Shown: positions 19,698-33,610 of the stretch, in pieces
How the letters are laid out: every line of letters begins with the position of its first letter
How positions within the stretch are numbered: the stretch's first letter is position 1
NCBI GenBank assembly: GCA_000993275.1
Contig: LBVV01000009.1
Coordinates: forward strand, 2,897 to 66,896
Source: a candidate division CPR2 bacterium GW2011_GWC2_39_10
GTDB taxonomy: Bacteria; Patescibacteriota; CPR2
Length of the DNA: 64,000 bases
Reading direction: 5' to 3'
Notes under the pieces: model-generated
The model's database searches: none
What the model was told of the DNA's origin: nothing
Seen by the model: the letters and a program-made list of their open reading frames with translations, nothing else
Program-made: the position numbers and the translations under genes

Positions 19698-20648
19698 GTG
19701 ATACAGAATATTCATCTCCCAGAAATTAAAACAATTAAGGAAACCGGCAACCAAGGATCTTACTCCGTTGAGCCTCTTTATCCGGGCTACGGTATGACTC
19801 TTGGCAATTCGCTAAGAAGAGTGATTTTATCTTCTCTTCCGGGGTCTGCGGTGACTGCTGTTAAAATTGACGGGGTAACCCACGAGTTTACAACAATCCC
19901 TCATGTAAAAGAGGACATTGTTGAGATCATTCTTAACCTTAAGCAATTAACTGTCAAATCGCATTCTGAAGAAGAGCAGTATTTGTACTTAAGTGCTTCA
20001 GGTGAAGGCAAGGTAACTGCAAGGGATATCAAAGCCCCTTCTCAGGTAGAGATTTTAAATCCCGATCTTGAAATTGCCACTTTGGGCAATGCTAAAGCCA
20101 AGTTTGAAATGGAAATTAAAGTAGAGCAAGGCAGAGGCTATGTTCCGGTTGATAAAAGAGAAGGCGAAAAGTTACAAGTTGGCATGATTGCGATAGACGC
20201 TATTTATACGCCGGTTAAAAAGGTTCGTTATACCGTTGAAAGCACACGTGTCGGACAAATGACAGATCTTGACAAATTAATTATCGAACTTGAAACCGAT
20301 GGAACAATTTCTCCAAAGGAAGCAATTGTTCAAGCTTCAGAAATTTTAGTCAATCATTTCTTGGTTTTAGCCGGAAAAGAGGTTAAGGGTCAAGGTATGG
20401 TCACGGAAGGTGTGAAACCGGAAAAAAGTGCGGAAGACGCCGCTTCTAAAATTTTGGTTGAAGAAGTTAATCTTTCACCGCGCACTACTAATGCACTTCT
20501 AAACAACGATATCAAAACAATTGCCGATGTTCTAAATCTAACCGATGAAGAACTAAAAAGCCTTAAAGGCTTCGGCAACAAGGCTTATCAGGAAGTTAGA
20601 GAGAAGCTTGACGAATTAGGGTTTAATTTTGAGGTAGCTGGAGAGTAA
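19698..20648 (+). CDS. rpoA: DNA-directed RNA polymerase subunit alpha
   Basis: GTG start after AAAGGAGG; N- and C-terminal alpha domains. Confidence 0.95.
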   Translation: MIQNIHLPEIKTIKETGNQGSYSVEPLYPGYGMTLGNSLRRVILSSLPGSAVTAVKIDGVTHEFTTIPHVKEDIVEIILNLKQLTVKSHSEEEQYLYLSASGEGKVTARDIKAPSQVEILNPDLEIATLGNAKAKFEMEIKVEQGRGYVPVDKREGEKLQVGMIAIDAIYTPVKKVRYTVESTRVGQMTDLDKLIIELETDGTISPKEAIVQASEILVNHFLVLAGKEVKGQGMVTEGVKPEKSAEDAASKILVEEVNLSPRTTNALLNNDIKTIADVLNLTDEELKSLKGFGNKAYQEVREKLDELGFNFEVAGE

Positions 20649-20649
20649 A

Positions 20650-21141
20650 ATGCATAGACACAAATACGTCGGTCGAAAATTTGGAAGAGAAAAAGGCCCA
20701 AGAGAAGCTTTAATTAAGAACTTGGCAACCTCTTTAATTCTTCACGAAAGAATAGAAACCACTTTGGCGAAAGCAAAAGAAATTAGGCCTGTTGTAGAAA
20801 AAATTATTACCAAGGGCAAAAAAGGCGATTTAGCTGCCAGAAGACAGCTTCTAAAAAAACTGCCTGAAAATGCTGCTGCAAAAGTTATAGAAAAACTATC
20901 TGTTGAATATAAAGAAACTCCCGGCGGTTATACCAGAATTTTAAAAACCGGGTTTCGAGGTGGGGATGGAGCACCAACAGCAATAATTGAATTTACCGGA
21001 GCCGAAGTTGCCATCAAAGAAGAGAAAAAGGCCAGAGAGGCTAAAAAGGAAGCCAGAAAAGTAAAGAAAGAGACTAAAGAAAAAAAGCCGGCCGCAAAGA
21101 AGAAAGAAATAGCCAAAAAGCTTAAAGGAGCTTCGAAATGA
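20650..21141 (+). CDS. rplQ: 50S ribosomal protein L17 with a Lys-rich C-terminal extension
   Basis: HRHKYVGRKFGR...LILHERIETT. Confidence 0.93.
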   Translation: MHRHKYVGRKFGREKGPREALIKNLATSLILHERIETTLAKAKEIRPVVEKIITKGKKGDLAARRQLLKKLPENAAAKVIEKLSVEYKETPGGYTRILKTGFRGGDGAPTAIIEFTGAEVAIKEEKKAREAKKEARKVKKETKEKKPAAKKKEIAKKLKGASK

Positions 21142-21563
21142 AAACATACGTAACTAAACCGGCGGAAATAGTTAGAAAATGGTATTTGATTGACGGAAAC
21201 GATGTAGTTTTAGGACGTCTGTCAACAAATGTTGCCGATCTGCTTCGGGGTAAAAGAAAAGCTCATTTTTCCCCATCAGTTGATTGCGGCGACTTTGTAG
21301 TGGTTATTAATGCTTCTCAAATTAAAACCACCGGAAACAAAGAAGAAAAGAAAAAATATTACAGACATTCATGGTATCCGGGCGGGCTTAAAGAAGCAAC
21401 TTTAAGAGAAGTTAAAGCAAAAGACGACAGAATACCCTTATTTTTAGCGGTTAAGGGAATGCTGCCCAAAAATAAACTGCAAAATGAAATGTTAAAAAGG
21501 TTAAAAATATACTCTGGTAGCGACCATCCGCATACCCAGCAATTAGAAGAATACAAAGTATAA
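21138..21563 (+). CDS. rplM: 50S ribosomal protein L13
   Basis: MKTYVTKPAEIVRKWYLIDG. Confidence 0.94.
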   Translation: MKTYVTKPAEIVRKWYLIDGNDVVLGRLSTNVADLLRGKRKAHFSPSVDCGDFVVVINASQIKTTGNKEEKKKYYRHSWYPGGLKEATLREVKAKDDRIPLFLAVKGMLPKNKLQNEMLKRLKIYSGSDHPHTQQLEEYKV

Positions 21564-21625
21564 ATCAAAAGTCAAAATGCATAAAGAATTATATTCAAAA
21601 ATCACTATCTAAATACCCTTAACTG

Positions 21626-21650
21626 TCATTCCCGCGGAGGCGGGAATCCA
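21626..21650. repeat. Palindromic hairpin of the GTCATTCC family (ATTCCCGC-GGAG-GCGGGAAT)
   Basis: Lies in the rplM-rpsI spacer. Confidence 0.6.
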
Positions 21651-21707
21651 GAAGCCTAAAATAGGCAATAAGGATTAGTGAAAGAAAAACCCCAAGAGGA
21701 GACATTA

Positions 21708-22118
21708 ATGGTTGAAGAAAAAAAACAAGTCAAAAAACAATACTACTACGGCTTAGGAAGACGAAAAGAAGCTATTTCTAAAGTTAGGCTATATATTGGA
21801 AAAGGTGAATTTACTATAAACGGAAAGAAAATTGAAGAAATATTTAGTGCTTATTTAATTCAAAGACTAATTCAGCCCCTAAAGTTAACCGGAACAGAAA
21901 ATAAATTTGATATTTCTGTTGTTTCCTCAAGCGGAGGCAAAACCGGTCAAGCAGAAGCCACCAGGCTAGGAATTTCCAGAGCTCTAATAGAATTTAATCC
22001 GGAACTCAGGACCACTCTTAAAAAAGCCGGATTCTTAACCAGAGATCCAAGAGAAAAAGAAAGAAAGAAATACGGCCTAAAAAGAGCCAGAAAAGCACCA
22101 CAATTTGCAAAAAGATAA
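21708..22118 (+). CDS. rpsI: 30S ribosomal protein S9
   Basis: YYYGLGRRKEAISKVRL; ATG at 21708 after a GAGGAG RBS. Confidence 0.93.
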   Translation: MVEEKKQVKKQYYYGLGRRKEAISKVRLYIGKGEFTINGKKIEEIFSAYLIQRLIQPLKLTGTENKFDISVVSSSGGKTGQAEATRLGISRALIEFNPELRTTLKKAGFLTRDPREKERKKYGLKRARKAPQFAKR

Positions 22119-22124
22119 AAAAAA

Positions 22125-22147
22125 CCACTCGAAAGAGTGGTTTTTTA
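22125..22147 (+). terminator. Rho-independent terminator that ends the ribosomal super-operon
   Basis: CCACTC-GAAA-GAGTGG followed by TTTTTT. Confidence 0.8.
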
Positions 22148-22190
22148 GTAAACAGTTAATGGCAAGCAGAAACCACCCTCATTTTTGCTT

Positions 22191-22240
22191 TGTCAATCCG
22201 GACATTCCTTTAGAAAATACAATCAAGTGATCCGGAATCC
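22191..22240. repeat. ~50-nt palindromic element (CCGGACATTC...TGATCCGGAATCC). A second copy sits at 25215-25263.
   Basis: The two copies align almost base for base. Confidence 0.7.
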
Positions 22241-22282
22241 AGAAAGAAAAAAATATCAATCCTGTCCTTTTCTGAAGCAAAA

Positions 22283-22452
22283 AGTAACTGCTCACAATCC
22301 TGCATTTTATGTTCATATATTATATTAAACTATTTATGTCATACCAAACTTGATTTGGGATCCACTTGTTCAGTTAAATATCGAGCTTTCTGGATTCCGG
22401 ATCAAGTCCGGAATGACAAGAAAGGGGGGGGTGATTGTGAGCAGTTACAGCA
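22283..22452. mobile_element. MITE-like element (~170 bp) with perfect 16-bp terminal inverted repeats GTAACTGCTCACAATC. No transposase is present.
   Basis: The left TIR is at 22285-22300 and its reverse complement at 22435-22450. The interior carries an ATTCCGGA-TCAAG-TCCGGAAT hairpin. Confidence 0.6.
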
Positions 22453-22798
22453 AAAAATATTGATTTTTGGCCATATTTATGATAAAATATAAAATCAATC
22501 AAAATGTAACTTTGCAAAAAAATAAAAAAAGTGGAATGAATTTAGGAGGGGATTCGGATGTAATTGAAATGGTATCTCGTTTTGTTTGCAAGTTTCGTTG
22601 TGTGCGGACTGTTTTATTGGTACATAAGAAAGATCAATAAGGTAAGGGCTTTAGAACTCTGGAGATTACAGATTACAGATTCTATTATGGAAAATGGACT
22701 TTCAACAGTAGAAATGGGGGAACGAGGCGCGTAGGTAGAAATCCAACTTGCTTAAGATGTGTAAATTGTTTATGATAATTTAGTAAATAGGAGCAAGA

Positions 22799-23188
22799 AT
22801 GGGCGATCTCTCAGTTGCAATTTTGATATGTTTAATAATAGTTATTCTGATTTATTCCATACCATATCGTATTGTGGGAGATGTAATTGGTTTTATTCCG
22901 CGACATGCGATATCAAACTATCCAGAAATAGCTAAGAAATATTTCGGCTCAGAAATCGCTAATTTAACCTCTATGATAGCCATCTCTGGTGGAATATTTA
23001 GGTATAAAACTAAAATAAAGCAAATTAAAAGTTTTCTAAATGATACAGACTGTTCTCAGGATCCAAGGCTTGTGAAACTTGTCAAAAGGCTTAATATTTT
23101 TTTAGTGATGCGAAAGATCTATTTTGGATTACTAATTATGTTAACTATTTATTTCTTTATTTTTCTTTATCTAACATCGATGAGATAG
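22799..23188 (+). CDS. Hypothetical small membrane protein
   Basis: The ORF has hydrophobic segments; the codon-bias support is weak. Confidence 0.35.
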   Translation: MGDLSVAILICLIIVILIYSIPYRIVGDVIGFIPRHAISNYPEIAKKYFGSEIANLTSMIAISGGIFRYKTKIKQIKSFLNDTDCSQDPRLVKLVKRLNIFLVMRKIYFGLLIMLTIYFFIFLYLTSMR

Positions 23189-23242
23189 TTGCAAGAAAAG
23201 GCTATTGGGTCTATTTATTATTTTCATAAAAGATTTTATCTT

Positions 23243-23460
23243 TTGCCACTTTTTGGAAAGTGGCGTAAAACTTTCGGCTGTCTTCGCCAAAGTGTCGGAA
23301 GTAGCACTCATTCTTTCTCAAAAAAATTGCCGCTCCTCCGGATCGCCCTCACGCCCAGCTAAAGCTGGCCTCCGGTAGGAATTTTTTTGAGATAGTCATT
23401 CGTTTCTTCCTCTCTTTGGCTGCGGAGGCCGATTTAGGACTCGTAAAATCGAAGATTTTT
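23243..23460. repeat. Repeat family B, diverged copy 4
   Basis: Shares the CCACTTTTTGG..AAAGTGG hairpin, the ..AAAACT..CGGC segment and the CTCAAAAA/TTTTTGAGAT inverted pair with the other copies. Confidence 0.5.
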
Positions 23461-23467
23461 TGGTAAT

Positions 23468-24028
23468 ATGAAGTCAAAAGGAGCATTGGTGAAAATAAAA
23501 GATAATAGTGACTTGTTTAATGAATGTAAAGACGCCTTTAGGTTAGAAACGTTATCCGTTTACTCAATACCTGAAGAGGAAAAATACCTCCAATTATATT
23601 ATGATGGCAAGCCACTACCACCACAAGAATGTTGTATGACTGAATGGCACACAATGTTAACAAAAGCGAAAGAAAGAGGCGCCTCTTTTAAAAGATTGAG
23701 GTCTTTACCGGAAAGTTTTAATAACTACATAAGAGCCGAAATTGAATGGGGCTACATATATAATGCCGAATTCGGTGAAAATATAAGAATGATTACTCCT
23801 AGTTTGATAAAAGAGAAAGTTAGCAAGGAAAAACTTGTAGATTTTTGGATTTTTGATAATGCTTCAGTTTTACTAATGAATTACGATACGGAAGGTCATT
23901 TCCTTGGCAGCAATCTAGTGGATGACTTCAGGGAAGTTGATAAATATATAAAGATAAAAGAGTTGCTATGGCCGCTAGGCCAGAAGCTGGAAGATTTTTT
24001 AAAAGAATATCGCGCTAAAAAGTATTAA
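23468..24028 (+). CDS. Hypothetical protein, possibly DUF6879-like (an uncertain recollection of the FWIFD..VLLMNYD.EGHF pattern)
   Basis: The ORF has an AAGGAG RBS that fits an in-frame GTG at 23498. No confident family assignment. Confidence 0.5.
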   Translation: MKSKGALVKIKDNSDLFNECKDAFRLETLSVYSIPEEEKYLQLYYDGKPLPPQECCMTEWHTMLTKAKERGASFKRLRSLPESFNNYIRAEIEWGYIYNAEFGENIRMITPSLIKEKVSKEKLVDFWIFDNASVLLMNYDTEGHFLGSNLVDDFREVDKYIKIKELLWPLGQKLEDFLKEYRAKKY

Positions 24029-24103
24029 AACTCGACAAATTTGTGGTTTTTTTGCTATAATTAAGCCATGAATTTATATTGTGCAATTTTTTTATAAGTT
24101 CTA

Positions 24104-24133
24104 GATTCCCGATCGGGTCGGGAATGACGAAGG
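24104..24133. repeat. GTCATTCC-family hairpin (ATTCCCGA-TCGGGT-CGGGAATGAC)
   Basis: Seen in the sequence. Confidence 0.55.
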
Positions 24134-24205
24134 GAAAGCAGATTCCGGCTTTTATCTAAAGAGGGTAGGCACGTAAAGACTTGTTTATTGCTTATTGCTT
24201 TTTGT

Positions 24206-25126
24206 TTATTTTTTAACTAGTGGTAATGTACAGCATCTAAAGCCTGCTCCGGTTTTGGGGGCTTCGTCAAATTTTACCGGAATAATTTTTATGTTCATAT
24301 CAGTTAAAAGTTTAATTAATCTTGTTGCATTGTGCCGCATAATAATTGTGTTCGGGTCAATTACCAAAACGTTGGAAAATAGGGCGTCTTGTTCTTCCCT
24401 CGAGATATCAATTAACGCGTAATTATCTAAAATCTCTTGAGGAATTTCTTTTAAACCATTTTTATAAATCAGGGCCTTGCCAGCGACAATTGGGCCAAAA
24501 GTACAGTCTAGGTGCAGACATTCTTCGTCGTCTTCCGGTAGTTTCATGAATACGGGAATAACTTTATATTTGGTATCCCTTAAAGCATCTTTCAAAAAAT
24601 TTAAGCCTTCTTCAGTTGATCTTTGACCGATTCCACAAAAAACAAAACCTTTGTCCAAAATTATGTCGCCGCTTTCTAAAATTATCCCTTCGGGAATTCG
24701 AATAATTTTATCTTCAGGAATTAAATCCAAAATATCTTTTAAGGCTTCCCATTCCCGTTTACGGCTTATCTTTTTCATGTTGCAGATAAAAAACAAATCG
24801 CCGATAACAAAGGCAATGTCGCGGGGTGGAAGCTGGTCGCATACGCCGGTAGAACAGGGCAATGGAAGCAAGTGCCGAACGTGAACGCCTAAATCCTTCA
24901 AAACCAATTCTAAACCGTCAAATTCCTTTTTTAAACTTTCGGCCGTAGGTTTATCGTCAGAGAAATAATATTTTTTTTGAGTATTATTAACTATTTCCAA
25001 AGTTTTAGGGTCAGAAAGGAAATTATCCGGATAGCCAATTACCACATCCCTTAAAGTGTCCGTTTCATTCAAGCAATGGGGGATTAAGTTTTCTTTTTTA
25101 TTTTTAGTAATTATTTCTTCTTTCAT
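24206..25126 (-). CDS. Amidinotransferase-superfamily enzyme (DDAH / arginine deiminase-like)
   Basis: C-terminal GAGFRCCTLPL matches the catalytic Cys motif G.G.RC.T.PL of this superfamily; 306 aa. Confidence 0.6.
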   Translation of the reverse strand: MKEEIITKNKKENLIPHCLNETDTLRDVVIGYPDNFLSDPKTLEIVNNTQKKYYFSDDKPTAESLKKEFDGLELVLKDLGVHVRHLLPLPCSTGVCDQLPPRDIAFVIGDLFFICNMKKISRKREWEALKDILDLIPEDKIIRIPEGIILESGDIILDKGFVFCGIGQRSTEEGLNFLKDALRDTKYKVIPVFMKLPEDDEECLHLDCTFGPIVAGKALIYKNGLKEIPQEILDNYALIDISREEQDALFSNVLVIDPNTIIMRHNATRLIKLLTDMNIKIIPVKFDEAPKTGAGFRCCTLPLVKK

Positions 25127-25214
25127 AGGTTCTAGAAGATTTTATCAAGGAAAGGGCTAGGTGTTAAGACGATTTTTCATAAATGCTATTTAGTGGTGTT
25201 TTTCTCACATTTCC

Positions 25215-25263
25215 GTCATTCCGGACATTCATTTAAAAAGTACAATCATTTGATCCGGAATCC
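25215..25263. repeat. Second copy of the ~50-nt CCGGACATTC...GATCCGGAATCC palindromic element
   Basis: Aligns with 22191-22240. Confidence 0.7.
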
Positions 25264-25282
25264 ATTCTTTTTTAAAGTACTT

Positions 25283-25415
25283 TCTTTTCCACTTTTGGCA
25301 GCAAAAGTGGAGCAAAACTGCCGACACGCTACAAAATCGGATTAGCACATAAGGCTCATTCACTCTCAAAAAGTCGAACTCGTCGTGCATCTCGATTTTT
25401 CCGCTACAGTCGGAC
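25283..25415. repeat. Repeat family B, copy 1 (133 bp)
   Basis: Near-identical to 31446-31594 apart from a 17-bp indel. Starts with the hairpin CCACTTTTGGCAGCAAAAGTGG. Confidence 0.85.
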
Positions 25416-25484
25416 AAAAGAAGGGAAATTTGATTTAAAGGCAAAAATTATTTTTTTAATCAATTCTTTGCTATAATAACATTA

Positions 25485-25811
25485 ATGAAAAAGCGGCGGA
25501 TAAAATTTATCTTAAAAGCAACGGATTTTGTTTTGCTAACATTTATTCTTTTTCCGATGGCTTTTTATATTAATCGAATTTATGGTTGCGATGCTTGTCA
25601 TTTAAATTTCATTCAGAACCTCTTAAAATCTATTGCCCAATACTTAATCAAGGTTCAGGTTTTAGTGTTTGCGCCGGCCTTAGTCGTTTTTTTTATCCCG
25701 TTTTCCATTGTCATGGAATGGGCAAGCGGCAGTCCCAGGGAATGGAAGCTGACTGCATATATCGCTTGCATCATTAGTCTTATGGCTCTAATGTATTTTG
25801 TGTTTACATAA
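25485..25811 (+). CDS. Hypothetical membrane protein
   Basis: Three predicted TM segments; no family recognised. Confidence 0.4.
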   Translation: MKKRRIKFILKATDFVLLTFILFPMAFYINRIYGCDACHLNFIQNLLKSIAQYLIKVQVLVFAPALVVFFIPFSIVMEWASGSPREWKLTAYIACIISLMALMYFVFT

Positions 25812-25869
25812 AATACAATTGGCACTTATGAAGCGACCATGGTAAAATAGTTTTTAGTTAAGGAGGGAT

Positions 25870-26265
25870 ATGGGTTATATCGACAAAATTGCTTCTTCAT
25901 TTGCAAACTACCTGGTTGCGGTTTGGCAGCAGATTAGTTGGATTTTTACTACGGATACAATTAAAATGAAGCCGCTGTTATTTTTGGATATTATTTTAGT
26001 GGCCTTTGTTTTCTATTGGATTTACATTTTTCTTAAAAAAACCACAGCTTCACGATTCCTACCCGGGTTCCTCGCATTTTCTGTTTTTGCCGGCCTTGGT
26101 TATCTTTTTGATTTAAATGCCGTTGCTTGGTTATTTTCTAAAATGTTTTTAGTCATAATTGTGGCAATTCCCATAATATTTCAACCGGAAATTAGGGAAG
26201 CATTAAGTTTGATGTCAAAGAAAAAATCTTTGGTTAACGCTCCGATTAATAAGGAAGATAGATGA
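25870..26265 (+). CDS. cdaA: Diadenylate cyclase CdaA, N-terminal transmembrane module only. The catalytic DAC domain is missing.
   Basis: Aligns with the B. subtilis CdaA TM region up to the IIFQPELRRALEQLG junction (here IIFQPEIREALSLM). It stops 14 aa later, and cdaR starts immediately. Confidence 0.65.
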   Translation: MGYIDKIASSFANYLVAVWQQISWIFTTDTIKMKPLLFLDIILVAFVFYWIYIFLKKTTASRFLPGFLAFSVFAGLGYLFDLNAVAWLFSKMFLVIIVAIPIIFQPEIREALSLMSKKKSLVNAPINKEDR

Positions 26266-27482
26266 AGTACATAACCAATAATTTTTTTGTTAAATTTTTA
26301 TGTTTGGTGCTTGCCTTTGTTTTTTGGGTTTTTGTGATGGCAGCTGACACCAGAATGGGTTATTTCCCCAAAGAAATCGAGGTAAAAGTTAGAAATATTG
26401 CTAACGGTCTTGCGGTAGTGGAGGATACTGTTCCAATAAAAATTAAAGTAAAAGCTCCCTTAACCGTATATAATAAATTAAATGATAAAAGTTTTGAGGC
26501 TTACGTGGACGCTTCCAGTATAAAAGAAGCCGGGGCCGAAAATTTAGATATTAAAATTGATTCAAAGGAAGCGGGTGTTCAGGTAGTAGGGTCGGACCCT
26601 AAATCCTTCCTATTAAAATTGGAAGATGAAGAAACTAAAAAAATGGCTATAACCCTAAGCCATAAGGGAAAACCGTCTGATGATTATAAAGTTGGAACCG
26701 GGGAAATTTCGACAAAAGACGTTATAGTGACCGGTTCCCCTACAAAATTAAAAAAAATAGCAGATGTTGTGGCGTTGATAGAGTTAAAGGGTAATGAAAA
26801 AGGAAATATTGATGCCGACATGCCGGTAGTCGCTTTAGACGAAGATAACAATACCATTAATTATCTGGTTTTTGATCCGGAAATTGTGGGTGTTAAGATG
26901 GCCATTATTCCAAAGGTGGTGTCTAAATCCGTTGGTATAAAAGTGAACTTAACAGGTGAGGCGGCTAAAGGCTACTGGGTAAGCAAGATAAAAACCGATC
27001 CGGAGATTGTGGCCGTTAAAGGAGAGCTTGAAAAAATAAAAAATATGGAATATGTGGAAACTGAAAAAATTGATTTGGTGGGGAATTCGCAAACTATGAT
27101 TGCTCGTGCTAAGTTTCAGTTGCCGGAAGGTGTAAAAGTGGCAGATAATATAGACAAAGTTAATGTCCAAATTTTTATTTCTAAAATTGATGCTACCAAA
27201 ACCATATCGCCCGCGGTAAACTTTAAAAGGGGAAATCCGAAATATAAAGCGGAGACCTTAAATATGCCGGCCGTTACCTTGTCCGGTTCGCAAGCCGCCC
27301 TAAATGCCGCTACTTCTGAAAATGTTGTTTTGAATATAGATTTGTCAAGTTACGGACCGGGCGAGCAAAAAATTCAAATTAAAAAAGAAATGGTGACAGT
27401 TTCTGGTGAAGTTGAAGTGACTAAAGTTTTACCGGAGTTTATAACAATAAAAATAACGGAGATAGCAACACCAACCCCATGA
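26262..27482 (+). CDS. cdaR: YbbR-domain protein (CdaR-like regulator of CdaA)
   Basis: N-terminal TM followed by repeated YbbR-like modules (..G.AAKGYWVSKIKTDPEIVAVKG.. pattern). It lies directly downstream of the cdaA remnant. Confidence 0.7.
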   Translation: MKYITNNFFVKFLCLVLAFVFWVFVMAADTRMGYFPKEIEVKVRNIANGLAVVEDTVPIKIKVKAPLTVYNKLNDKSFEAYVDASSIKEAGAENLDIKIDSKEAGVQVVGSDPKSFLLKLEDEETKKMAITLSHKGKPSDDYKVGTGEISTKDVIVTGSPTKLKKIADVVALIELKGNEKGNIDADMPVVALDEDNNTINYLVFDPEIVGVKMAIIPKVVSKSVGIKVNLTGEAAKGYWVSKIKTDPEIVAVKGELEKIKNMEYVETEKIDLVGNSQTMIARAKFQLPEGVKVADNIDKVNVQIFISKIDATKTISPAVNFKRGNPKYKAETLNMPAVTLSGSQAALNAATSENVVLNIDLSSYGPGEQKIQIKKEMVTVSGEVEVTKVLPEFITIKITEIATPTP

Positions 27483-28501
27483 AATTAGAAGATAGACATA
27501 ATTTAAAACTTATCATTATCCTATTCCTGGCGCTGCTATTGGGTGGTACTATTGGTTTTGTTGCTTTTACGGACGAAGACATACTAACCGCTTTCTACAG
27601 GACTATCATTTTAATGCTGACTCACTTTGACCATGAAATTCCGGAGACTTGGGGAGTAAGGCTTCTTGTCTTGGGTCTAATTTTTGGAAGTCTTATCATT
27701 ATGGCATATTTAATAAAGATATTTGCTCAGTATATTTTTGAAGGAACGCTGAGTGATAATATAAGGAGGCGAAGAATGAAAAAAGAAATAGATGCTATGA
27801 AAGACCATTTTATAGTTTGCGGTTTTGGGCGTGTCGGACAACAGATCGTTCAGGAGCTTATAAATGAAGATGTCAATTTTGTCGTTTTAGATCGTGACGA
27901 AAAAGCATTTCATGATAGAATATCAAAGAAGATTAAATTTTTGCCTAAAGATCCAACATTCGAGGATAATTTGCGTGATGCGGGTATTTACAGGGCCAAG
28001 TCTTTAATTGCGGGTTTGGGTGAAGATACGGATAATTTGCTTCTAACATTGGCGGCCAGATCCCTAAATCCCAACCTTTATATCGTTTCCAGATGTAGTT
28101 TTGAGGAAAATGCGGCAAAATTAGAAAAGGCAGGAGCGGACAGAGTTGCAATGCCGTATCAAATTGGCGGATATCATATGGCCACTATGGCCTTGAGGCC
28201 GGCAGTTGTTGATTTTTTAGATGTCATTATAGACAGCAAGCATCACGAATTGCAAATAGAAGAAGTTTGTGTTGAAGAAGATTCGCCGCTAATTGGCAAG
28301 CCATTAACGGAATATTTATCCAGAAAAAGAACGGGTGCCACAATTTTGGCAATTAACCGTTATGATGGAACATCTGTTATTAATCCGGCGGGAGACGAAA
28401 TAATTTATAGTAAAGACAAACTAATAATTATGGGCACAAAGAAGCAGTTGGAAAATTTGGCCAGTTCAATCTTTAGCGAGGAGAGTATTATTGTTAAGTA
28501 A
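27479..28501 (+). CDS. Ion-channel protein with an RCK (TrkA-N/TrkA-C) domain
   Basis: Two N-terminal TM segments and pore region; GFGRVGQQIVQEL Rossmann motif; C-terminal TrkA-C. Confidence 0.7.
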   Translation: MKLEDRHNLKLIIILFLALLLGGTIGFVAFTDEDILTAFYRTIILMLTHFDHEIPETWGVRLLVLGLIFGSLIIMAYLIKIFAQYIFEGTLSDNIRRRRMKKEIDAMKDHFIVCGFGRVGQQIVQELINEDVNFVVLDRDEKAFHDRISKKIKFLPKDPTFEDNLRDAGIYRAKSLIAGLGEDTDNLLLTLAARSLNPNLYIVSRCSFEENAAKLEKAGADRVAMPYQIGGYHMATMALRPAVVDFLDVIIDSKHHELQIEEVCVEEDSPLIGKPLTEYLSRKRTGATILAINRYDGTSVINPAGDEIIYSKDKLIIMGTKKQLENLASSIFSEESIIVK

Positions 28502-28844
28502 AGAATTTACAGAAGAGCAAAAAGAGATTTTGAAAAAAAAGCTTAAAGATATCGAGGCAGAACTGGAAGAAAGAGCAGTTAAGTCGCCGGATAATATTTT
28601 TTGGAAGGCAAAATTTGATGATTTTGGCATAGAGGACGACGATGAGGTCTTAGAAGACGAAGTTTTCGATGTCAAAGTTGCCCAAATAAAAAATTTGTTA
28701 GAAGATAAGGCGCAAATTGAGTTAGCGTTGGAAAAGTTTTATAACGGAAGTTACGGTATTTGTGCGAATTGCCGTCAAGAAATTGATGTAGAAAGATTAA
28801 AGGCTTTCCCTGAAGCAACATTTTGTATAAAATGTGATTCATGA
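28491..28844 (+). CDS. DksA/TraR-family C4 zinc-finger protein
   Basis: Coiled-coil N-terminus and C-terminal CANCRQEI...FCIKCD. Confidence 0.65.
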   Translation: MLSKEFTEEQKEILKKKLKDIEAELEERAVKSPDNIFWKAKFDDFGIEDDDEVLEDEVFDVKVAQIKNLLEDKAQIELALEKFYNGSYGICANCRQEIDVERLKAFPEATFCIKCDS

Positions 28845-29770
28845 AAAAGGATTATAAAATTGATAATGAGGGATCCGGCAAAAGACTGGATGTTTTTTTA
28901 GTTTCCAGGGAGACTAATTATTCCAGGTCTTTTGTCCAGAAATTAATAATTGGGGGTAGGGTGCTAATTAATAATGTTTCCGGAAAAGCGAATATGATAT
29001 TAAAAGTGGGAGACTCCGTTTCATTTACAGCTCCGGAAGCAAAAAAAGAAGAAAAATTAAAGCCGTCTAACGATATAGAGATCCCTATAATTTTTGAGAA
29101 TGAAGAATTTTTAGCAATAAACAAACCGGCCGGGCTTGTTGTTCATCCGGCATTTGGTCACCCGGATGATACCTTAGTAAATATTCTTGTATCAATGCGT
29201 CCGGATTTAATGCGTCTGGATAATTTACGTCCGGGAATTATTCATCGGCTGGATAAAGATACTTCCGGCATAATGCTGGTTGCAAAAACCCAGGAAGCGG
29301 TAACTTTTTTATCCAAGGAAATTGAAAATAGAAAAGTAAAGAAACATTATTTGGCTTTGGTTTTTGGCAAGGTCGATCCTAAAAGGGGAGAGATTAATGT
29401 TCCCCTTAAAAGATCTTCGGTTAATAGAAAAAAAGTTGATGTTTCCGCGGCGGGTAAAACAGCAATTACGAATTATGAAGTGGCGGAGGAACTGGGCAAC
29501 GCGACATTAATAAATGCTTTTCCGGTAACCGGCAGAACGCATCAAATTAGAGTTCATTTTTCGTATATTGGTCATCCAATAATTGGCGATGAAACATATT
29601 CGTCAGGGTTACAACTTCTGGAGGCGAAAAAGTTGGGGGTTACCAGGCAAATGCTTCATGCTTATCGCTTGGGTTTTAAAGACCCCAAAACTAAAAAATG
29701 GCTGGAACTAGAGGCTCCGGTTCCTCAAGATTTTCAAAAGTTACTTCAGAAAACAAGGATGGAAAAATGA
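28841..29770 (+). CDS. rluD: RluA-family 23S rRNA pseudouridine synthase (RluD-like)
   Basis: S4 domain and HRLDKDTSGIMLVAKT catalytic motif. Confidence 0.85.
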   Translation: MKKDYKIDNEGSGKRLDVFLVSRETNYSRSFVQKLIIGGRVLINNVSGKANMILKVGDSVSFTAPEAKKEEKLKPSNDIEIPIIFENEEFLAINKPAGLVVHPAFGHPDDTLVNILVSMRPDLMRLDNLRPGIIHRLDKDTSGIMLVAKTQEAVTFLSKEIENRKVKKHYLALVFGKVDPKRGEINVPLKRSSVNRKKVDVSAAGKTAITNYEVAEELGNATLINAFPVTGRTHQIRVHFSYIGHPIIGDETYSSGLQLLEAKKLGVTRQMLHAYRLGFKDPKTKKWLELEAPVPQDFQKLLQKTRMEK

Positions 29771-30684
29771 TCGGCGACATTATCCAATTGGAGAAGGCGA
29801 GAATGGCCTATAAAAATGGCACCCTAAAACAGTCATATTTAATTACCGGTCCGTGGGATATCGGAAAAAAAGATTTTGCCATAGCGTTTTCGGCAATGAT
29901 TTTTTGCGAAACTAAAGACAATTGCGGTAAATGTAAGGGCTGCAAAAAAACCAATTCTTTTTCTAATCCCGACTTCTATGTTTTAGATGAGGAAGGGCAA
30001 ATAAAAATTGATTCGATAAGAGAGCTAAATAAAAAATTAAATTTAAAGCCCTATGAGTTTGAAAGTAAGGTAGCTTTAATAATTGGGGCAGAGAGAATGA
30101 CAATTGAAGCGGCAAATAGTTTACTAAAGATATTAGAAGAACCGCCGGAAGATTCTGTTATTATTCTTACATCCGCCGTACCCGGTCAATTGCTAGAAAC
30201 CATTAAGTCCAGATGTCAGGATATCAAGTTAAAAAATATGCCTAAAAAAATGATTGTTGAAGAATTAATTAAAAACCATGGCTTGAAAAGCGATGAGGCC
30301 TTAAGAATTGCCAATATCGCTTTAGGAAGGCCAAAATTAGCGGAGAAATTGGTCGTAAATGATGATTATGGTGAAGAGGTTGAATTTTTAAGAGAAATTG
30401 CAAAAAAAAATTTGTGCGATAGGTTCAAATTGGCGTCAGATTTTGCCGAAAAAAAGAATGTGTTAAGGTTAATCGGTTATTGGGAGACTTTTTTTATGGA
30501 TCTTTTAAAAGCAAAAATGGATGGCAGGGATGACCTGTCAACAACAAAACATAAGGTTAAAGATTTCTCTTGGGACATCTGGGCAATCGTAAACATACTT
30601 GACATTTTAGAGAAAATGAGGGAATATATCCAGAGTAAAATCAAAAATAAACTAATTCTAGAGAACATATTCTTAAATATATGA
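29767..30684 (+). CDS. holB: DNA polymerase III delta-prime subunit
   Basis: AAA+ fold with ITGPWDIGKKDFA and the CGKCKGCKK zinc module. The ATG at 29767 overlaps the rluD stop in an ATGA arrangement. Confidence 0.8.
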   Translation: MIGDIIQLEKARMAYKNGTLKQSYLITGPWDIGKKDFAIAFSAMIFCETKDNCGKCKGCKKTNSFSNPDFYVLDEEGQIKIDSIRELNKKLNLKPYEFESKVALIIGAERMTIEAANSLLKILEEPPEDSVIILTSAVPGQLLETIKSRCQDIKLKNMPKKMIVEELIKNHGLKSDEALRIANIALGRPKLAEKLVVNDDYGEEVEFLREIAKKNLCDRFKLASDFAEKKNVLRLIGYWETFFMDLLKAKMDGRDDLSTTKHKVKDFSWDIWAIVNILDILEKMREYIQSKIKNKLILENIFLNI

Positions 30685-31367
30685 AGCTTGCCGGAATCCA
30701 ATTTCAATACTCTCTTAAAATTTATGATTTCGATCAGAACGACCTGGAAATTTCATTGGGTGATTTTGTTTTGGTAGAAACTATTCAGGGTCAGGAAATA
30801 GGAAGGGTGGTTTACTTAAATAAAAAGAAAAAAACGAGTGATGAAGATGCCAGGCCGATACTCCGAAAAGCAACTTTGGAAGACCGGGAAAAAATGAAAG
30901 AGTTAAAAGAGGAAGCTGCCACTTATTTGCCGGATTTCGAAAAACAAGTCAAGAGTTTTGGGCTTAAAATGAGACCGCTTGCCGCTGATATTTCTGTTGA
31001 TGAAAAGAGATTGACTTTTTATTTTATGGCAGAAAGCAGGATTGATTTTAGGGATATGGTAAGAGAATTGGCCAGGGAATATAAAAAGCAAATAAGACTC
31101 TTACAGGTTGGTGCCAGAGACGGAGCCCGAATTGTGGGCGGTTATGGCAGGTGCGGTTTAGTAGTCTGCTGTCAGAGATTCCTTACGGACTTAGAAAGCA
31201 TCACCATGGATATGGCGAGGAATCAGAATTTGGCGGCTAAATCAGGTTCTAAAATTTCCGGAATTTGCGGCAAACTAATGTGCTGTCTTGCATACGAAAC
31301 TGATGATAAAAATAAGATTGAGAAAGAGATGGAAAAAGAAATTGATGCTGCTCAAAGCCGAGACTAA
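30681..31367 (+). CDS. ricT: PSP1 C-terminal domain protein (RicT/YaaT-like)
   Basis: CCQRFL...ICGKLMCCLAYE cysteine motifs; holB-ricT adjacency is conserved. Confidence 0.75.
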   Translation: MKLAGIQFQYSLKIYDFDQNDLEISLGDFVLVETIQGQEIGRVVYLNKKKKTSDEDARPILRKATLEDREKMKELKEEAATYLPDFEKQVKSFGLKMRPLAADISVDEKRLTFYFMAESRIDFRDMVRELAREYKKQIRLLQVGARDGARIVGGYGRCGLVVCCQRFLTDLESITMDMARNQNLAAKSGSKISGICGKLMCCLAYETDDKNKIEKEMEKEIDAAQSRD

Positions 31368-31404
31368 ATAATTGTGCATCTAATTTCAGAATGGGTTTAA
31401 GTAT

Positions 31405-31429
31405 GTCATTCCGGACTTGATCCGGAATC
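31405..31429. repeat. GTCATTCC-family hairpin (ATTCCGGA-CTTGA-TCCGGAAT) after ricT; may act as a terminator
   Basis: Seen in the sequence and followed by a T-rich tract. Confidence 0.55.
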
Positions 31430-31445
31430 TATTATTTCTTTATTT

Positions 31446-31594
31446 CTATTTCCACTTTTGGCAGCAAAAGTGGAGCAAAACTGCCGACACGCTACAAAAT
31501 CGGATTAGCACATAAGGCTCATTCACTCTCAAAAAGTCGAACTCGTCATCTTCTCTTCGCCAAGTGCATCTCGATTTTTCCGCTACAGTCGGAG
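31446..31594. repeat. Repeat family B, copy 2
   Basis: Aligns with 25283-25415. Confidence 0.85.
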
Positions 31595-31643
31595 AAGAAT
31601 TATAGATATTGATATCGCAAATAGTATGGACTATTATTAATTT

Positions 31644-31880
31644 ATGTTTGGTGCATGTTTTGTAACTGATTACGGATATTATATGCTTGCCGGATTTATT
31701 ATTGCAGGTTTATTATCCGGGTACATTTCATTTTTATTAATTAGAAAACTAATCAAGACAAAGAAAGACTCTTTACTGATACCAATAATATTATTAGGAA
31801 TAGTTTTTCTTATTTCGGCCATTTTTATTTTGAATTTTAAACAACTTGCATGGATGTCGACATGTATTGCCTCAGTTTAA
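31644..31880 (+). CDS. Small hypothetical membrane protein
   Basis: Two TM helices; weak support. Confidence 0.35.
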   Translation: MFGACFVTDYGYYMLAGFIIAGLLSGYISFLLIRKLIKTKKDSLLIPIILLGIVFLISAIFILNFKQLAWMSTCIASV

Positions 31881-32019
31881 TACAAATAATAATAACAAAT
31901 AATTGACTATAAGGCATAATTTAGATATAATAGTACAGAATTTCGGCCTCTTTTTTTGTTTTTAAAAATGTGTCAATTGAGTTTTAATGGTAGGGGGCTG
32001 GTTGCATGGATAAAAAAAT

Positions 32020-32100
32020 GCCGATGTAGCGTTAGTGGCAGAGTCCGGCAACTGACGGATAAACAGTAGGTTGACCGTAAGGCTAGGTAAGTGAGCAGGA
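32020..32100 (+). pseudogene. tRNA-like fragment. It duplicates the 5' acceptor/D region and an anticodon-stem piece of the downstream tRNA-Thr but has no T-arm.
   Basis: GCCGATGTAGC and AAACAGTAGGTTG are shared with 32107-32180; no GGTTCGAATCC follows. Confidence 0.45.
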
Positions 32101-32106
32101 AAAATG

Positions 32107-32180
32107 CCGATGTAGCTCAATGGCAGAGCAACTGTTTTGTAAACAGTAGGTTGTGGGTTCGAATCCCTCCATCGGCTCCA
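32107..32180 (+). tRNA. tRNA-Thr (anticodon TGT), CCA encoded
   Basis: Cloverleaf drawn by hand: acceptor GCCGATG/CATCGGC, D-arm GCTC..GAGC, anticodon stem ACTGT/ACAGT with loop TTTGTAA, T-loop TTCGAAT. Confidence 0.8.
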
Positions 32181-32190
32181 TAAAAGTTAT

Positions 32191-32262
32191 CAGGAATCAG
32201 TAACCAGGAAACATTAATAGGGATAGAAGATTGTTTACTGATTACTGTTTCCTGATTCCTGA
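32191..32262. other. Large imperfect inverted repeat between two tRNAs (CAGGAATCAG..CAGGAAACA / TGTTTCCTGATTCCTG)
   Basis: Seen in the sequence. Confidence 0.5.
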
Positions 32263-32265
32263 CAC

Positions 32266-32351
32266 GGGCAGGTACCCAAGTGGCCAACGGGGGCAGACTG
32301 TAAATCTGCTGGCATTCGCCTTCGAAGGTTCGAATCCTTCCCTGCCCACCA
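32266..32351 (+). tRNA. tRNA-Tyr (anticodon GTA) with a long variable arm, CCA encoded
   Basis: Acceptor GGGCAGG/CCTGCCC, anticodon loop CTGTAAA, T-arm GAAGGTTCGAATCCTTC. Confidence 0.8.
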
Positions 32352-32444
32352 ATAACAATAAACAATTAACAAGGAACAAAAAACAAAAGCACAGTTTTAC
32401 GGATAAAATGTTTTTTGTTGATTGCACTTTGTTTTTTGGCTCGG

Positions 32445-32520
32445 GCCCAGATAGCTCAGTTGGCAGAGCGCATCCATGGTAAGGATGAGGTCACGGGTTC
32501 GAATCCCGTTCTGGGCTCCA
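32445..32520 (+). tRNA. tRNA-Thr (anticodon GGT), CCA encoded
   Basis: Acceptor GCCCAGA/TCTGGGC, anticodon stem CATCC/GGATG with loop ATGGTAA, T-arm ACGGGTTCGAATCCCGT. Confidence 0.78.
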
Positions 32521-32617
32521 GATAACTTGCTAAGTTTTCAAACAATGTTACCTCAATAATTTGCCCTAGTAACTTGCAAACTTACCAATTAATAAACTAG
32601 AATAAAAGGAGAAATAA

Positions 32618-32782
32618 ATGGCAAAGAAAGAAAATCGGCCGGTAATTGCACTTGCTTGCGGTGAATGTAAAAACAGGAACTATTCAACTACAAAAAATAA
32701 GAAGAATACGACTGACAGGATAGAATTAAGCAAATTTTGTCCTTTTTGCCGAAAAACCACAGCTCACAAAGAAACGAAATAA
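32618..32782 (+). CDS. rpmG: 50S ribosomal protein L33 (54 aa). It is absent from the ORF track because it is shorter than 60 aa.
   Basis: Translation [29 protein letters not shown]...[15 protein letters not shown], a Cys4 zinc ribbon; RBS AAAGGAG. Confidence 0.88.
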
Positions 32783-32870
32783 AACTTTATATAGTTCGAT
32801 ATTTGACAAGTAAATGTTGATATTTTAGAATGGTTATGGGTGTAAATATAACTGTTGATTATTATTCAAA

Positions 32871-33533
32871 ATGAAAACTAATCTTAAATCAAAAGCCATA
32901 TCTTTGCGTAAGCAAGGCTTCTCTTTGAAAGAAATAAGTGAAGATTTAGGTATAGCAAAAAGTACGGCATCCTTGTGGTTAAGGGATACTGTTTTAAGCG
33001 CAAATGCTATAAAAAGGATTGAAAGTAGAATAACTAAAGGACAAATAAAAGCGGCTGAAATAAAGAGAGAAAAAACAAGAAAATTGTTAAATGAATTTCA
33101 AGCAAAAAGCGATGTGTTAGTTGGGCGAACTATATTAAATATTGATATGATAAAGATAATATGTTCATTGATTTATTGGTGTGAGGGGGGTAAATATAGC
33201 GATAATTTCGTACAATTTACCAATTCAGATCCCAGTCTTATGGGTACATTTCTGCAATTACTTAGGCAGGTATTTATGGTAGATGAAAAAAAATTTAGGG
33301 TTTGTATGCATCTTCATGACTATCATAATGAAAAAAAGCAAAGACAATTTTGGTCTATGGTAACAGAAGTTCCCGAGAGCCAGTTTATAAAGTCATACAA
33401 TAAGCCAAATACGGGAAAGAGAATTAGAAAAGGTTATCAAGGATGTGTGCAGTTGAGGTATTATGATGCGGTAGTATCGAGAGAATTATTAGCAATAGCT
33501 AAATCTTTCATGAATAAACTTGAAAACAAATAA
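32871..33533 (+). CDS. HTH DNA-binding protein with a possible degenerate LAGLIDADG homing-endonuclease-like core
   Basis: N-terminal HTH (SLKEISEDLGIAKSTASLWLRD). The segment LIYWCEGGKYSDNFVQFTNSDPSLMGTFLQLL resembles a LAGLIDADG helix plus following strand. The catalytic acidic position is not conserved. Confidence 0.4.
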   Translation: MKTNLKSKAISLRKQGFSLKEISEDLGIAKSTASLWLRDTVLSANAIKRIESRITKGQIKAAEIKREKTRKLLNEFQAKSDVLVGRTILNIDMIKIICSLIYWCEGGKYSDNFVQFTNSDPSLMGTFLQLLRQVFMVDEKKFRVCMHLHDYHNEKKQRQFWSMVTEVPESQFIKSYNKPNTGKRIRKGYQGCVQLRYYDAVVSRELLAIAKSFMNKLENK

Positions 33534-33534
33534 A

Positions 33535-33610
33535 GGGGCGTTCGTTAATTGGATAAACGGCTACTCTCCAAAAGTAGTCCTGCCGGTTCGAGTCCGGCCG
33601 CCCCTGCCAA
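33535..33610 (+). tRNA. tRNA-Trp (anticodon CCA), CCA encoded
   Basis: Acceptor AGGGGCG/CGCCCCT, D-arm CGTT..AACG, anticodon loop CTCCAAA, T-arm GCCGGTTCGAGTCCGGC. Confidence 0.78.

Follow-up and report, generated by a model that had tools for sequence, protein, structure and literature searches.

The stretch of DNA analysed here (the window; 64,000 nucleotides, positions 2,897–66,896 of contig LBVV01000009.1 from the candidate division CPR2 bacterium GW2011_GWC2_39_10) contains four copies of an intergenic repeat that we term family B. Family B is a real, uncatalogued family of ∼170-nt noncoding repeats found in many bacteria of the candidate phyla radiation (CPR) and in some Bacteroidota; comparison of its members gives a full length of ∼165–185 nt. 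A preliminary description of the window had proposed the four copies, and all of them were recovered at the expected places and far above chance, three being clear and on the + strand and one diverged. The 25-mer TCACTCTCAAAAAGTCGAACTCGTC occurs three times in the window (none expected), CGCTACAGTCGGA three times (0.27 expected) and AAAACTGCCGAC exactly three times. A profile built from relatives matched the three clear copies with E values of 1e-32 to 1e-39 and the fourth, suggested earlier to be a diverged relative at 23243–23460, over positions 23246–23327 with an E value of 0.004; besides these four copies it gave only matches with E > 2 in the window. Folding was more stable than that of dinucleotide shuffles in all four copies (z = −3.9, −2.3, −2.7 and −3.7). 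Their parts are as follows, with P1 denoting the 5′ hairpin.

25287–25413, + strand: copy 1, canonical, with the apex deleted in this assembly; leader ∼25268–25286; P1 25287–25312 with loop GGCAGC 25297–25302; linker CAAAA 25313–25317; pseudoknot partner CUG 25318–25320; end-joining helix CCGAC 25321–25325 with GUCGG 25409–25413; tail to ∼25435
31450–31592, + strand: copy 2, canonical, with a 28-nt apex deletion in this assembly; P1 31450–31475 with loop 31460–31465; CUG 31481–31483; CCGAC 31484–31488 with GUCGG 31588–31592
51521–51723, + strand: copy 3, full length plus an insert; P1 51521–51545 with loop 51530–51535; linker 51546–51551; CUG 51552–51554; CCGAC 51555–51559 with GUCGG 51719–51723; inner helix and conserved apex (UCUCAAAAAGU..GAACUC..CUCAAACA..ACUUUUUGAGA) 51600–51649
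51662–51692, + strand: extra 31-nt GC-rich hairpin TCCGACCTCAGCTTCGCCGAAGGCGAGACGGG, nested in the 3′ arm of copy 3
23230–23456, + strand: copy 4, subfamily B2, matched by the profile as above; leader AAGATTTTATCTTTT; hairpin 23245–23264; linker GTAAAA; rod ∼23274–23432 with helix TCTCAAAAAAATT/AATTTTTTTGAGA; diverged 3′ end ..TCGTAAAATCGAAGA

Copies 1 and 2 had been described as near-identical apart from a 17-bp indel. The identity holds (99 of 99 bases agree between 25286–25384 and 31449–31547), but the short forms are not the base state of the repeat, both being deletion derivatives that lack 45 nt (copy 1) and 28 nt (copy 2). The window comes from a groundwater bacterium of the Rifle aquifer, its proteins are found also in the GCA_000995565.1 and PRJNA268031 assemblies, and other assemblies of the window's population carry identical 173-nt copies at the 25283 locus (five) and the 31446 locus (four), those at the two loci being 100% identical to each other over ∼170 nt. 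The supposed indel is thus the difference between two deletions confined to this assembly. Full-length alleles are present at the copy 1 locus in L160, L162 and L164–L166 and at the copy 2 locus in L064, L152–L154 and L158, where L-numbers label the compared sequences or contigs. Neither deletion (junctions 25385 and 31548) occurs in any other same-population assembly examined, so each is either a rare variant or an artefact of assembly; at the 31446 locus, the NCBI assembly (L151) shows another deletion, located 5′. A view of the two short copies as decaying was withdrawn, other assemblies being full length at both loci.

Copy 3 shares both ends with copies 1 and 2, as had been proposed, but its true end lies at 51723/51724 and not at 51715. 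The ∼70-bp 'insert' assigned to it between CTCAAAAA and TTTTTGAGAT was read with the polarity reversed: this segment is ancestral and consists of the conserved rod apex together with one 31-nt hairpin that is genuinely extra. The latter, which among other family members was found only in L093 (in a comparison with L030, L064 and L093), is possibly a nested repeat of even smaller size; in L093 a similar second insert follows CCGAC. Copy 3 is the same in L167–L171 apart from one A/G polymorphism (GGACTAAGTC versus GGACTGAGTC). The perfect hairpin CCACTTTT-GGCAGC-AAAAGTGG, thought to open every copy, is present in two, whereas copy 3 (at 51521) has the bulged CTACTTTTT-GGCAGC-AAAAAGATAG and copy 4 (at 23245) has GCCACTTT-TTGG-AAAGTGGC and is without AAAACTGCCGAC and CGCTACAGTCGGA. 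The element as a whole reaches ∼15 nt upstream of the hairpin and at least ∼10 nt beyond GTCGG. No loop pseudoknot is formed in copy 4; two further B2 copies lie in L054, and the B2 hairpin covaries (GCCACUUU/AAAGUGGC versus GUUCUUUC/GAAAGAAC).

Architecture and covariation of the fold

From 5′ to 3′, family B comprises a pyrimidine-rich leader of ∼15 nt, P1, a linker, a pseudoknot strand, CCGAC, a rod, GUCGG and a purine-rich tail. P1 is U/A-rich and 8–13 bp long, with a run of 4–6 U–A pairs on the loop-proximal side; its loop consists of six bases, G-N-N-N-G-C, and the linker ends in an A-run. Loop positions 5–7 (CAG) form a 3-bp pseudoknot with the three bases (CUG) that follow the A-rich linker, and, adjoining the pseudoknot strand without a gap, a 5-bp helix (CCGAC/GUCGG) joins the element's 3′ end to its 5′ module. 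The rod between CCGAC and GUCGG is ∼60 bp long, with small asymmetric loops near its base (AC opposite UACA, UAUU or AUA), a large bubble, pyrimidine-rich on both strands, an A/U helix (window type: UCUCAAAAAGU/ACUUUUUGAGA) and, at the apex, the motif RAACUC-(6–20 nt, often a mini-hairpin)-YUCAAACA. Across five lineages, only the 5′ module is conserved more strongly than this apex motif.

Compensatory changes across lineages preserve the pairing of all four parts (hairpin, loop pseudoknot, end-joining helix and rod), so that the covariation check proposed for this 'structured intergenic element' bears out the name. For the pseudoknot, an unbiased test was made in which the three middle loop bases and their partners were left free in the metagenome search pattern and the hits were classed by P1 complementarity only. 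Among the 36 hits with a good P1, all three free positions were paired in 20 and two of them in 14, against chance expectations of 5 and 26%; hits with a poor P1 appeared random. Loop position 5 and its partner formed CG in 21 cases, UA in five, GC in one and UG in one, and position 6 formed AU in 20 and GC in seven. The covariation score of the whole structure was 0.564 compared with 0.167 in shuffles (0/500), a control that overstates independence because copies within a lineage are related, and pairing stood at 92% compared with 44–62% in slid controls. The variants of this pairing include GGCAG/CUGCC, GGUGG/CCACC, GGCGG/CCGCC, GAUAG/CUACC, GAACG/CGUUC, GAGCG/CGCUC and GAGGG/CCCUC, and a loop variant GACAGC (G-to-A at position 4) recurs in several lineages. 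Loop position 4 was considered as a fourth pseudoknot pair and rejected, being unpaired in 14 of 30 cases; its would-be partner covaries instead with the last base of the element. The pseudoknot is thus 3 bp long and is stacked directly on the 5-bp end-joining helix.

The end helix itself changes from CCGAC/GUCGG to GCGAC/GUCGC in L056, L089, L109, L124 and L133 and to UCGAC/GUCGA in L104, while L043, with GCGAC and AUCGC, keeps four of the five pairs. P1 appears as CCAC/GUGG, CCGC/GCGG, CAAC/GUUG, GUUAC/GUAAC and ACUUUC/GAAAGU. The rods are wholly different between lineages yet remain paired; since they could not be aligned across lineages by MAFFT and RNAalifold, their structure was analysed lineage by lineage. 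Changes on both sides were found at 5–14 pairs in five of the six lineages examined, and the GGUGG lineage, whose copies are near-identical, has one such rod pair. In one rod lineage 91.5% of the cells were paired, with 14 doubly changed pairs compared with 7.3 ± 1.8 in shuffles (0/500). Compensatory changes of this kind indicate that selection acts on the fold of a single strand.

The length of the linker A-run equals that of the A-run in the 3′ arm of P1 in 60 of 66 distinct modules (4, 5 or 6; rho 0.91), and in Parcubacteria, L049, L106 and L042 a G inside the A-run is mirrored by the linker (CAAAGAAAA versus AAAAGAAAG). The matched run lengths and the mirrored G, both read from sequence, suggest that the linker lies in register along P1 as base triples. 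The H-type pseudoknot class fits this arrangement, in that two helices, both with covariation support, share the hairpin loop. H-type pseudoknots with groove-bound linkers include the preQ1-I and SAM-II riboswitches, telomerase RNA and luteovirus frameshift sites, and the topology of family B is the same: a hairpin, a loop paired downstream and an A-rich linker (U-rich on the other strand) that tracks the length of the stem. Unlike these examples, family B is multi-copy, has no shared gene context, does not lie in a reading frame and carries a 60-bp rod; with all of the loop in use, it also has no ligand pocket.

Distribution, turnover and genomic surroundings

A scan with the exact pattern TTGGCAGCAAAA-N5-16-AAACTGCCGAC, one genome per species, returned 32 family B loci in ∼14 metagenome-assembled genomes (MAGs), the taxa being given here as named in the database records. 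They include Saccharibacteria (five copies in one MAG), Howlettbacteria (seven copies), 'bacterium CG2_30_37_16' (the window's closest relative, with four copies), Doudnabacteria, Parcubacteria/Moranbacteria and a Saprospiraceae MAG with three copies on 0.5- and 1.6-Mb contigs. A looser pattern with six positions free matched at least 118 metagenome contigs, about half of those listed being family B members. Positions fixed by the search patterns (TTTTG..GCAAAA..AAAAC..CGAC) support no statement about conservation in these sets. The copies are therefore not confined to one genome as segmental duplicates, which was one of the findings that the preliminary description had set as its refutation. 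A pattern scan of IMG/VR and a blastn search of plasmids and phages each gave no family B match. The Rfam scan that had been proposed matched no family: with Rfam 15 and the whole window the gathering score was reached by four tRNAs only, and relaxed searches (E ≤ 10) of 22900–25700, of eight full-length-copy loci and of two isolated copies gave noise only. Literature searches for a comparable repeat or RNA in CPR bacteria yielded nothing relevant.

Copies are dense, with four in the 64-kb window, three in the 11.7 kb of L054 and 4–8 exact-pattern copies in each of several partial MAGs. The 45-nt 5′ module is identical in L005 (Saprospiraceae) and L107 (Howlettbacteria-type), although their rods are unrelated. 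A 15-copy subfamily with loop GGUGGC and partner CCACC occurs on metagenome contigs L038, L050, L095, L105, L113–L118 and L148; it has an additional upstream hairpin GCACTCCGTGC, often follows CCCTCTCC..GGGAGAGGG hairpins and carries a conserved TTGAC(C/T)T, resembling a −35 box, directly 3′ of GUCGG. One copy, in L071 (170–250), has four tandem 12-mers (CCCCTTCATTTA) in place of the rod, and in the sister species L015 (1350–1400) and L016 (3240–3290) a further conserved hairpin, AAGAT(G/A)AAGGCC(A/G)CCG..CGGTGGTA(G/A)TTTGC, lies ∼25 nt downstream of two family B copies.

Comparison of related contigs reveals rapid turnover. L054, an 11.7-kb contig from a species ∼86% identical, is syntenic with 23227–33649 but is without copy 2 and a 78-aa open reading frame (ORF); it has an extra canonical copy downstream of a 306-aa amidinotransferase-like gene and a B2-type copy precisely at the window's copy 1 locus, the alignable flanks resuming within the tail (AGTCGGACAAAAG versus AGTCAGACAAAGG). 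The Howlettbacteria contig L021, syntenic over 20040–31298, carries a single copy, between S9 and TrkA; the PSP1 gene is not followed by one. Solo 5′ modules stand directly upstream of full copies in L093, L097 and L150. In a test of 50 copies for target-site duplications, the longest direct repeat in a copy's own flanks had a mean length of 5.64 nt compared with 5.43 nt in the flanks of others (permutation p = 0.096). Terminal inverted repeats are absent: the 5′ end is a hairpin with its linker, the 3′ end reads ..GCUACAGUCGG and the complementary arms are internal.

The neighbours of family B are unrelated housekeeping genes without a common theme. All-against-all BLAST of the ORFs within 3–3.5 kb of 35 and then 91 copies revealed no recurrent protein family, the only matches being synteny pairs and spurious ORFs that overlap the element. 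No reverse transcriptase lies within 3.5 kb of any of the ∼90 copies and no TnpB-, Cas12-, IscB- or IS110-like ORF adjoins one. Of the CPR copies, as judged from naive ORF calls, 13 are sense to both neighbours, eight lie between convergent genes, four lie between divergent genes and at most two are antisense to both neighbours. Nine copies begin within 32 nt of the upstream stop codon, and copy 3 occupies a convergent intergenic gap of ∼240 nt. Scans for promoter and terminator consensus sequences gave no excess over shuffled sequence and none tied to the element. A hairpin upstream of copy 2 (31408–31428) scored as terminator-like, and the promoter-like site of the next gene (31609–31637) follows copy 2. 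Family B itself was not flagged as an intrinsic terminator, the tails after GUCGG being A/G-rich with no U-tract. A helix between leader and tail ('P0') is marginal, a copy's own leader and tail pairing slightly better than those of other copies (p = 0.043).

About one third of the family B copies lie 18–45 nt downstream of a hairpin of a second repeat family, GTCATTCC(N)..(N)GGAATC(C/T)AG, followed by a T-rich stretch. These hairpins, which are sometimes split by a long loop, stand at gene ends, occur also in L021 (2245–2330 and 3415–3441) and mark the points where the alignment of the window with L054 breaks; in form they resemble the Neisseria dRS3 repeats. The companion hairpins and other features noted in the window are listed below.

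25215–25264, + strand: companion hairpin GTCATTCCGGAC..GATCCGGAATC, 22 nt upstream of copy 1
31405–31429: companion hairpin of the same type, 20 nt upstream of copy 2
22192–22241: companion hairpin of the same type
24100–24125, − strand: companion hairpin of the same type
25460–25487: start region of a 108-aa membrane-protein gene 3′ of copy 1, with an extended −10-like TGCTATAAT ∼8 nt before the ATG; it is kept in L054, which suggests a leaderless or very-short-leader mRNA
1721–1818 and 6205–6302: 98-nt direct repeat, 99% identical, with a CGTCATTGCGAACGA..GCGGCAATC hairpin; one site separates fusA from tuf, the other follows a 690-aa β-propeller protein
32871–33533: protein of 220 aa in which Pfam matches only an N-terminal helix-turn-helix, encoded between tRNA-Thr(GGU) and tRNA-Trp within the tRNA cluster Thr-Tyr-Thr-(L33)-x-Trp

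A proposed structure-dependent repeat and its alternatives

Dense near-identical copies, rapid gain, loss and replacement, partial and nested forms, the lack of a shared context and a 5′ module common to different phyla argue for self-serving spread or homogenization; with the fold of a single strand under selection, we tentatively favour a description of family B as a nonautonomous, structure-dependent selfish repeat that is read by a factor encoded elsewhere, is multiplied or homogenized within genomes and moves between lineages. The linker, placed in the groove of P1 as a base-triple stack, would give a compact cap. On a single strand, whether of a transcript or of the lagging-strand template DNA, cap and rod might then be recognized by the factor in question, which would copy, move or recombine the element. 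Insertion or retention would be favoured just 3′ of the hairpin and T-tract sites at gene ends and in one orientation, and any effects on adjacent mRNAs (end protection, termination or processing) would be by-products, as for REP/REPIN, ERIC and Correia repeats. The preliminary description had left the choice between a small RNA family and a miniature mobile element; the multi-copy state and fast turnover fit a mobile or recombining repeat better than a conventional small-RNA gene.

The closest parallels are found among bacterial extragenic repeats. REPINs are extragenic hairpin repeats with compensatory changes, for which a single-copy transposase elsewhere in the genome has been proposed as the mobilizing factor (PMC3116915). 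Repetitive extragenic palindromes (REPs), REPINs and family B alike are abundant extragenic noncoding repeats of ∼100–200 nt that form long hairpins in single-stranded DNA or mRNA and show compensatory changes; they have neither target-site duplications nor terminal inverted repeats, their proposed mobilizer is encoded elsewhere and they occur as singlets and clusters (PMC3116915). A REPIN, however, is a symmetric doublet of inverted REPs, whereas family B is asymmetric (5′ hairpin, loop pseudoknot, A-tract linker and apex-bearing rod), and the GCUAC motifs on both of its arms are direct, not inverted. We know of no description of an asymmetric pseudoknotted architecture for REPIN-like repeats. 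REPIN–RAYT systems are described as mostly inherited vertically within lineages (bioRxiv 10.1101/2022.05.22.493013), whereas the 5′ module of family B spans phyla.

A miniature inverted-repeat transposable element (MITE) is likewise small, noncoding, multi-copy and variable in position, but in its classical sense the term proposed for family B is not supported, as neither terminal inverted repeats nor a target-site duplication was detected and no transposase was found nearby. Family B also resembles the Correia (CREE), ERIC, BOX and RUP elements, which are small dispersed repeats of intergenic or 3′ regions that fold as RNA rods. The Neisseria NIME mosaics consist of variable segments bounded by dRS3 hairpins, and family B is similar in that variable segments are bounded by short ATTCC..GGAAT-type hairpins. 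Correia elements and other MITEs differ in having terminal inverted repeats and TA or other target duplications, and none of Correia, ERIC, BOX, RUP or NIME is known to have a covarying pseudoknot like that of family B.

Several points weigh against the description as a selfish repeat. No mobilizing enzyme was identified among the 30 window ORFs scanned, in which Pfam recognized no transposase, integrase, reverse transcriptase or TnpB domain and no RAYT gene was present, and none recurs near the other copies. Neither a clean empty site nor a target-site duplication or terminal inverted repeat was found, and where the window and L054 differ, the replaced segments are bounded by GTCATTCC..GGAATC hairpins, a pattern that recombination rather than transposition could explain. 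The orientation bias rests on mechanical ORF calls and is confounded with replication direction, and the Bacteroidota copies follow no orientation rule, two of the three scorable ones being antisense to both neighbours. Parts of the 5′ module seem invariant only because the search patterns fixed them. A conserved apex in mid-element and the combination of pseudoknot and triplex-like linker typify functional RNAs more than they do known bacterial MITEs or REPs, and identical copies could reflect purifying selection and gene conversion acting on an RNA useful to the host.

Five kinds of strand test gave mutually conflicting answers. Raw minimum free energies favoured the − strand in 61 of 73 copies, whereas z-scores against dinucleotide shuffles favoured the + strand in 37 of 53 (−4.72 versus −4.10, p = 0.001). 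The 1×1 mismatches in + strand helices were G–U in ten cases and A–C in 15, and the consensus folds alike on both strands (97 versus 108 G–U cells), with lower energies on the − strand. Unpaired bases are C-rich and G-poor on the + strand; on the − strand they would be G-rich and C-poor (27 versus 14%), as is typical of known RNAs. The + strand is also supported by its sense orientation to the neighbours and by the easier fit of a near-zero-length connector across the short pseudoknot helix. For the − strand, the recurrent loop variant would be G–U instead of A–C, and the linker would be a U-run parallel to a purine arm, in keeping with the classical U·A–U/C+·G–C major-groove code. The equal frequency of G–U-type and A–C-type mismatches, and the fit of the + strand to a purine-motif DNA triplex code, would suit DNA. 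As the + strand of the window has a positive GC skew and 66 of the 72 ORFs, and carries all four copies, the orientations of transcription and replication are inseparable within it.

The selfish description is followed, as a possible but doubtful alternative, by a cis-acting RNA module that would benefit the host at gene boundaries and would be co-transcribed with the gene before it or precede the coding region of the gene after it. Its cap and rod would block exoribonucleases, terminate or insulate transcription or provide an RNase III site, and its purine-rich, Shine–Dalgarno-like tail could pair with the leader and loops, which are rich in pyrimidines (UCCC, CCUCC). Such a role would suit the nine starts close to stop codons, the gap filled by copy 3, the better + strand z-score and the fact that nearly all CPR copies are sense to at least one neighbour; moreover, the purine-rich tails are often GGAG-like, the tail in L008 is the ribosome-binding site of the next gene and CCUCC occurs in the internal loops of Saccharibacteria copies. 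The leader–tail pairing is also in its favour, but at p = 0.043 is marginal, and G–U is not enriched over A–C on the + strand. Copy 2, however, lies between the terminator-like hairpin and the promoter-like site and may be in neither mRNA, no U-tract follows the element, its neighbours have no common theme and its positions are not kept between related species. A riboswitch or gene-specific cis-regulator was rejected, the neighbours being unrelated and eight copies lying between convergent genes; so was an intrinsic terminator, since only the hairpin upstream of copy 2 was flagged and the tails are A/G-rich.

It is unlikely that the copies are trans-acting RNAs serving a protein encoded elsewhere, whether as a scaffold or sponge with a 6S- or Y-RNA-like rod or as orphan guide-RNA-like scaffolds in which the 3′ flank would be the guide. 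The guide RNAs of TnpB and TldR are built from a triplex and two stems whose distal parts are dispensable, and a pseudoknot joins five guide-flanking nucleotides to the apical loop of the 'triplex-loop' stem (PMC10711439; PMC11844463; bioRxiv 2026.09.22.753285). The family B cap is similar in kind to this TnpB/TldR/Cas12-type core: P1 and its linker look triplex-like, the P1 loop forms a covarying pseudoknot and GUCGG, five nucleotides adjoining the variable 3′ flank, is anchored by pairing beside that pseudoknot. The rod accommodates sizeable deletions and insertions, and its conserved apex and symmetric internal loops look like protein-binding sites. In contrast to ωRNA or reRNA, no TnpB or TnpA gene is adjacent to family B, a TnpB-, Cas12-, IscB- or IS110-like ORF is lacking in the window as well as beside the ∼90 copies, and the order differs from that in ISDra2, the pseudoknot strand of family B preceding the long stem. 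Rfam, which should include IS605-orfB (ωRNA) models, was blank even at E up to 10, neither a promoter nor a terminator belonging to the element is evident and the 3′ flanks are low-complexity and purine-rich, not diverse.

An element acting at the level of DNA, with no role for RNA, is likewise unlikely. In this case the imperfect palindrome would fold on the single-stranded lagging-strand template and would be processed by a tyrosine HUH transposase (RAYT or IS200/IS605 TnpA-like) or serve as a recombination site; the proposal overlaps with the selfish description favoured above, which leaves RNA versus DNA open. The near parity of G–U and A–C in helices looks as if neither RNA strand were selected, and both target-site duplications and terminal inverted repeats are missing. 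All four window copies are on the G-rich strand which, if leading, as the GC skew implies, has the sequence of the lagging-strand template; this is the orientation reported for IS608-type elements. The linker that mirrors the purine arm of P1, as in the Parcubacteria pair CAAAGAAAA and AAAAGAAAG, would fit an A·A–T/G·G–C purine-motif triplex. However, family B has a single P1-type hairpin, whereas PATE, an IS200/IS605 derivative, has subterminal hairpins at both ends; there is no recurrent ORF near the ∼90 copies, no Y1 transposase gene was seen, and a 3-bp loop pseudoknot and a conserved apex are without known precedent in REP, REPIN or PATE.

We regard as rather improbable a further proposal, that the copies are dispersed orphan guide-RNA-like genes serving an RNA-guided protein elsewhere, or a wholly new class of structured RNA or ribozyme spreading selfishly between CPR and Bacteroidota. 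Like family B, with its weak inverted repeats in the flanks (comparable to a1/a2), retron msr–msd RNAs have a short hairpin at the 5′ end followed by a long rod; family B differs in being multi-copy, with marginal pairing of its flanks, and a retron RNA was rejected because no reverse transcriptase adjoins the copies or is present among the window ORFs. An integron attC site was also rejected, since the rod base is CCGAC/GUCGG and not an RYYYAAC...GTTRRRY box and the flanking genes are housekeeping genes with no cassette array. A self-cleaving ribozyme or intron-like retroelement with a catalytic pseudoknotted core is highly improbable: the multi-copy state, the compact conserved core, the variable peripheral rod and the sense insertion after a hairpin and T-tract, which is also the habit of class C group II introns, recall such elements, but the Rfam models for hammerhead, twister, pistol, hatchet, HDV and group I/II went unmatched at relaxed thresholds, no reverse transcriptase lies nearby, ∼170 nt is far too small for a group II intron and there is no evidence of cleavage.

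The genomes of CPR bacteria (Patescibacteria) are ∼1 Mb in size with little spare DNA, yet in the regions sampled a 170-nt repeat recurs every 5–15 kb. In practice it breaks assemblies, numerous contigs stopping inside the element. Family B is new to Rfam and to the literature searched, is common to several CPR classes and a Saprospiraceae, and is unusual in joining the behaviour of a selfish intergenic repeat with an RNA-style tertiary core in which a loop pseudoknot covaries and a linker tracks its stem. Mobility, if confirmed, would point to a mobilization system of unknown kind that reads structure, and to gene flow linking episymbionts with other bacteria; as a functional RNA, family B would represent a new and abundant class of noncoding RNA in a poorly understood part of the tree.

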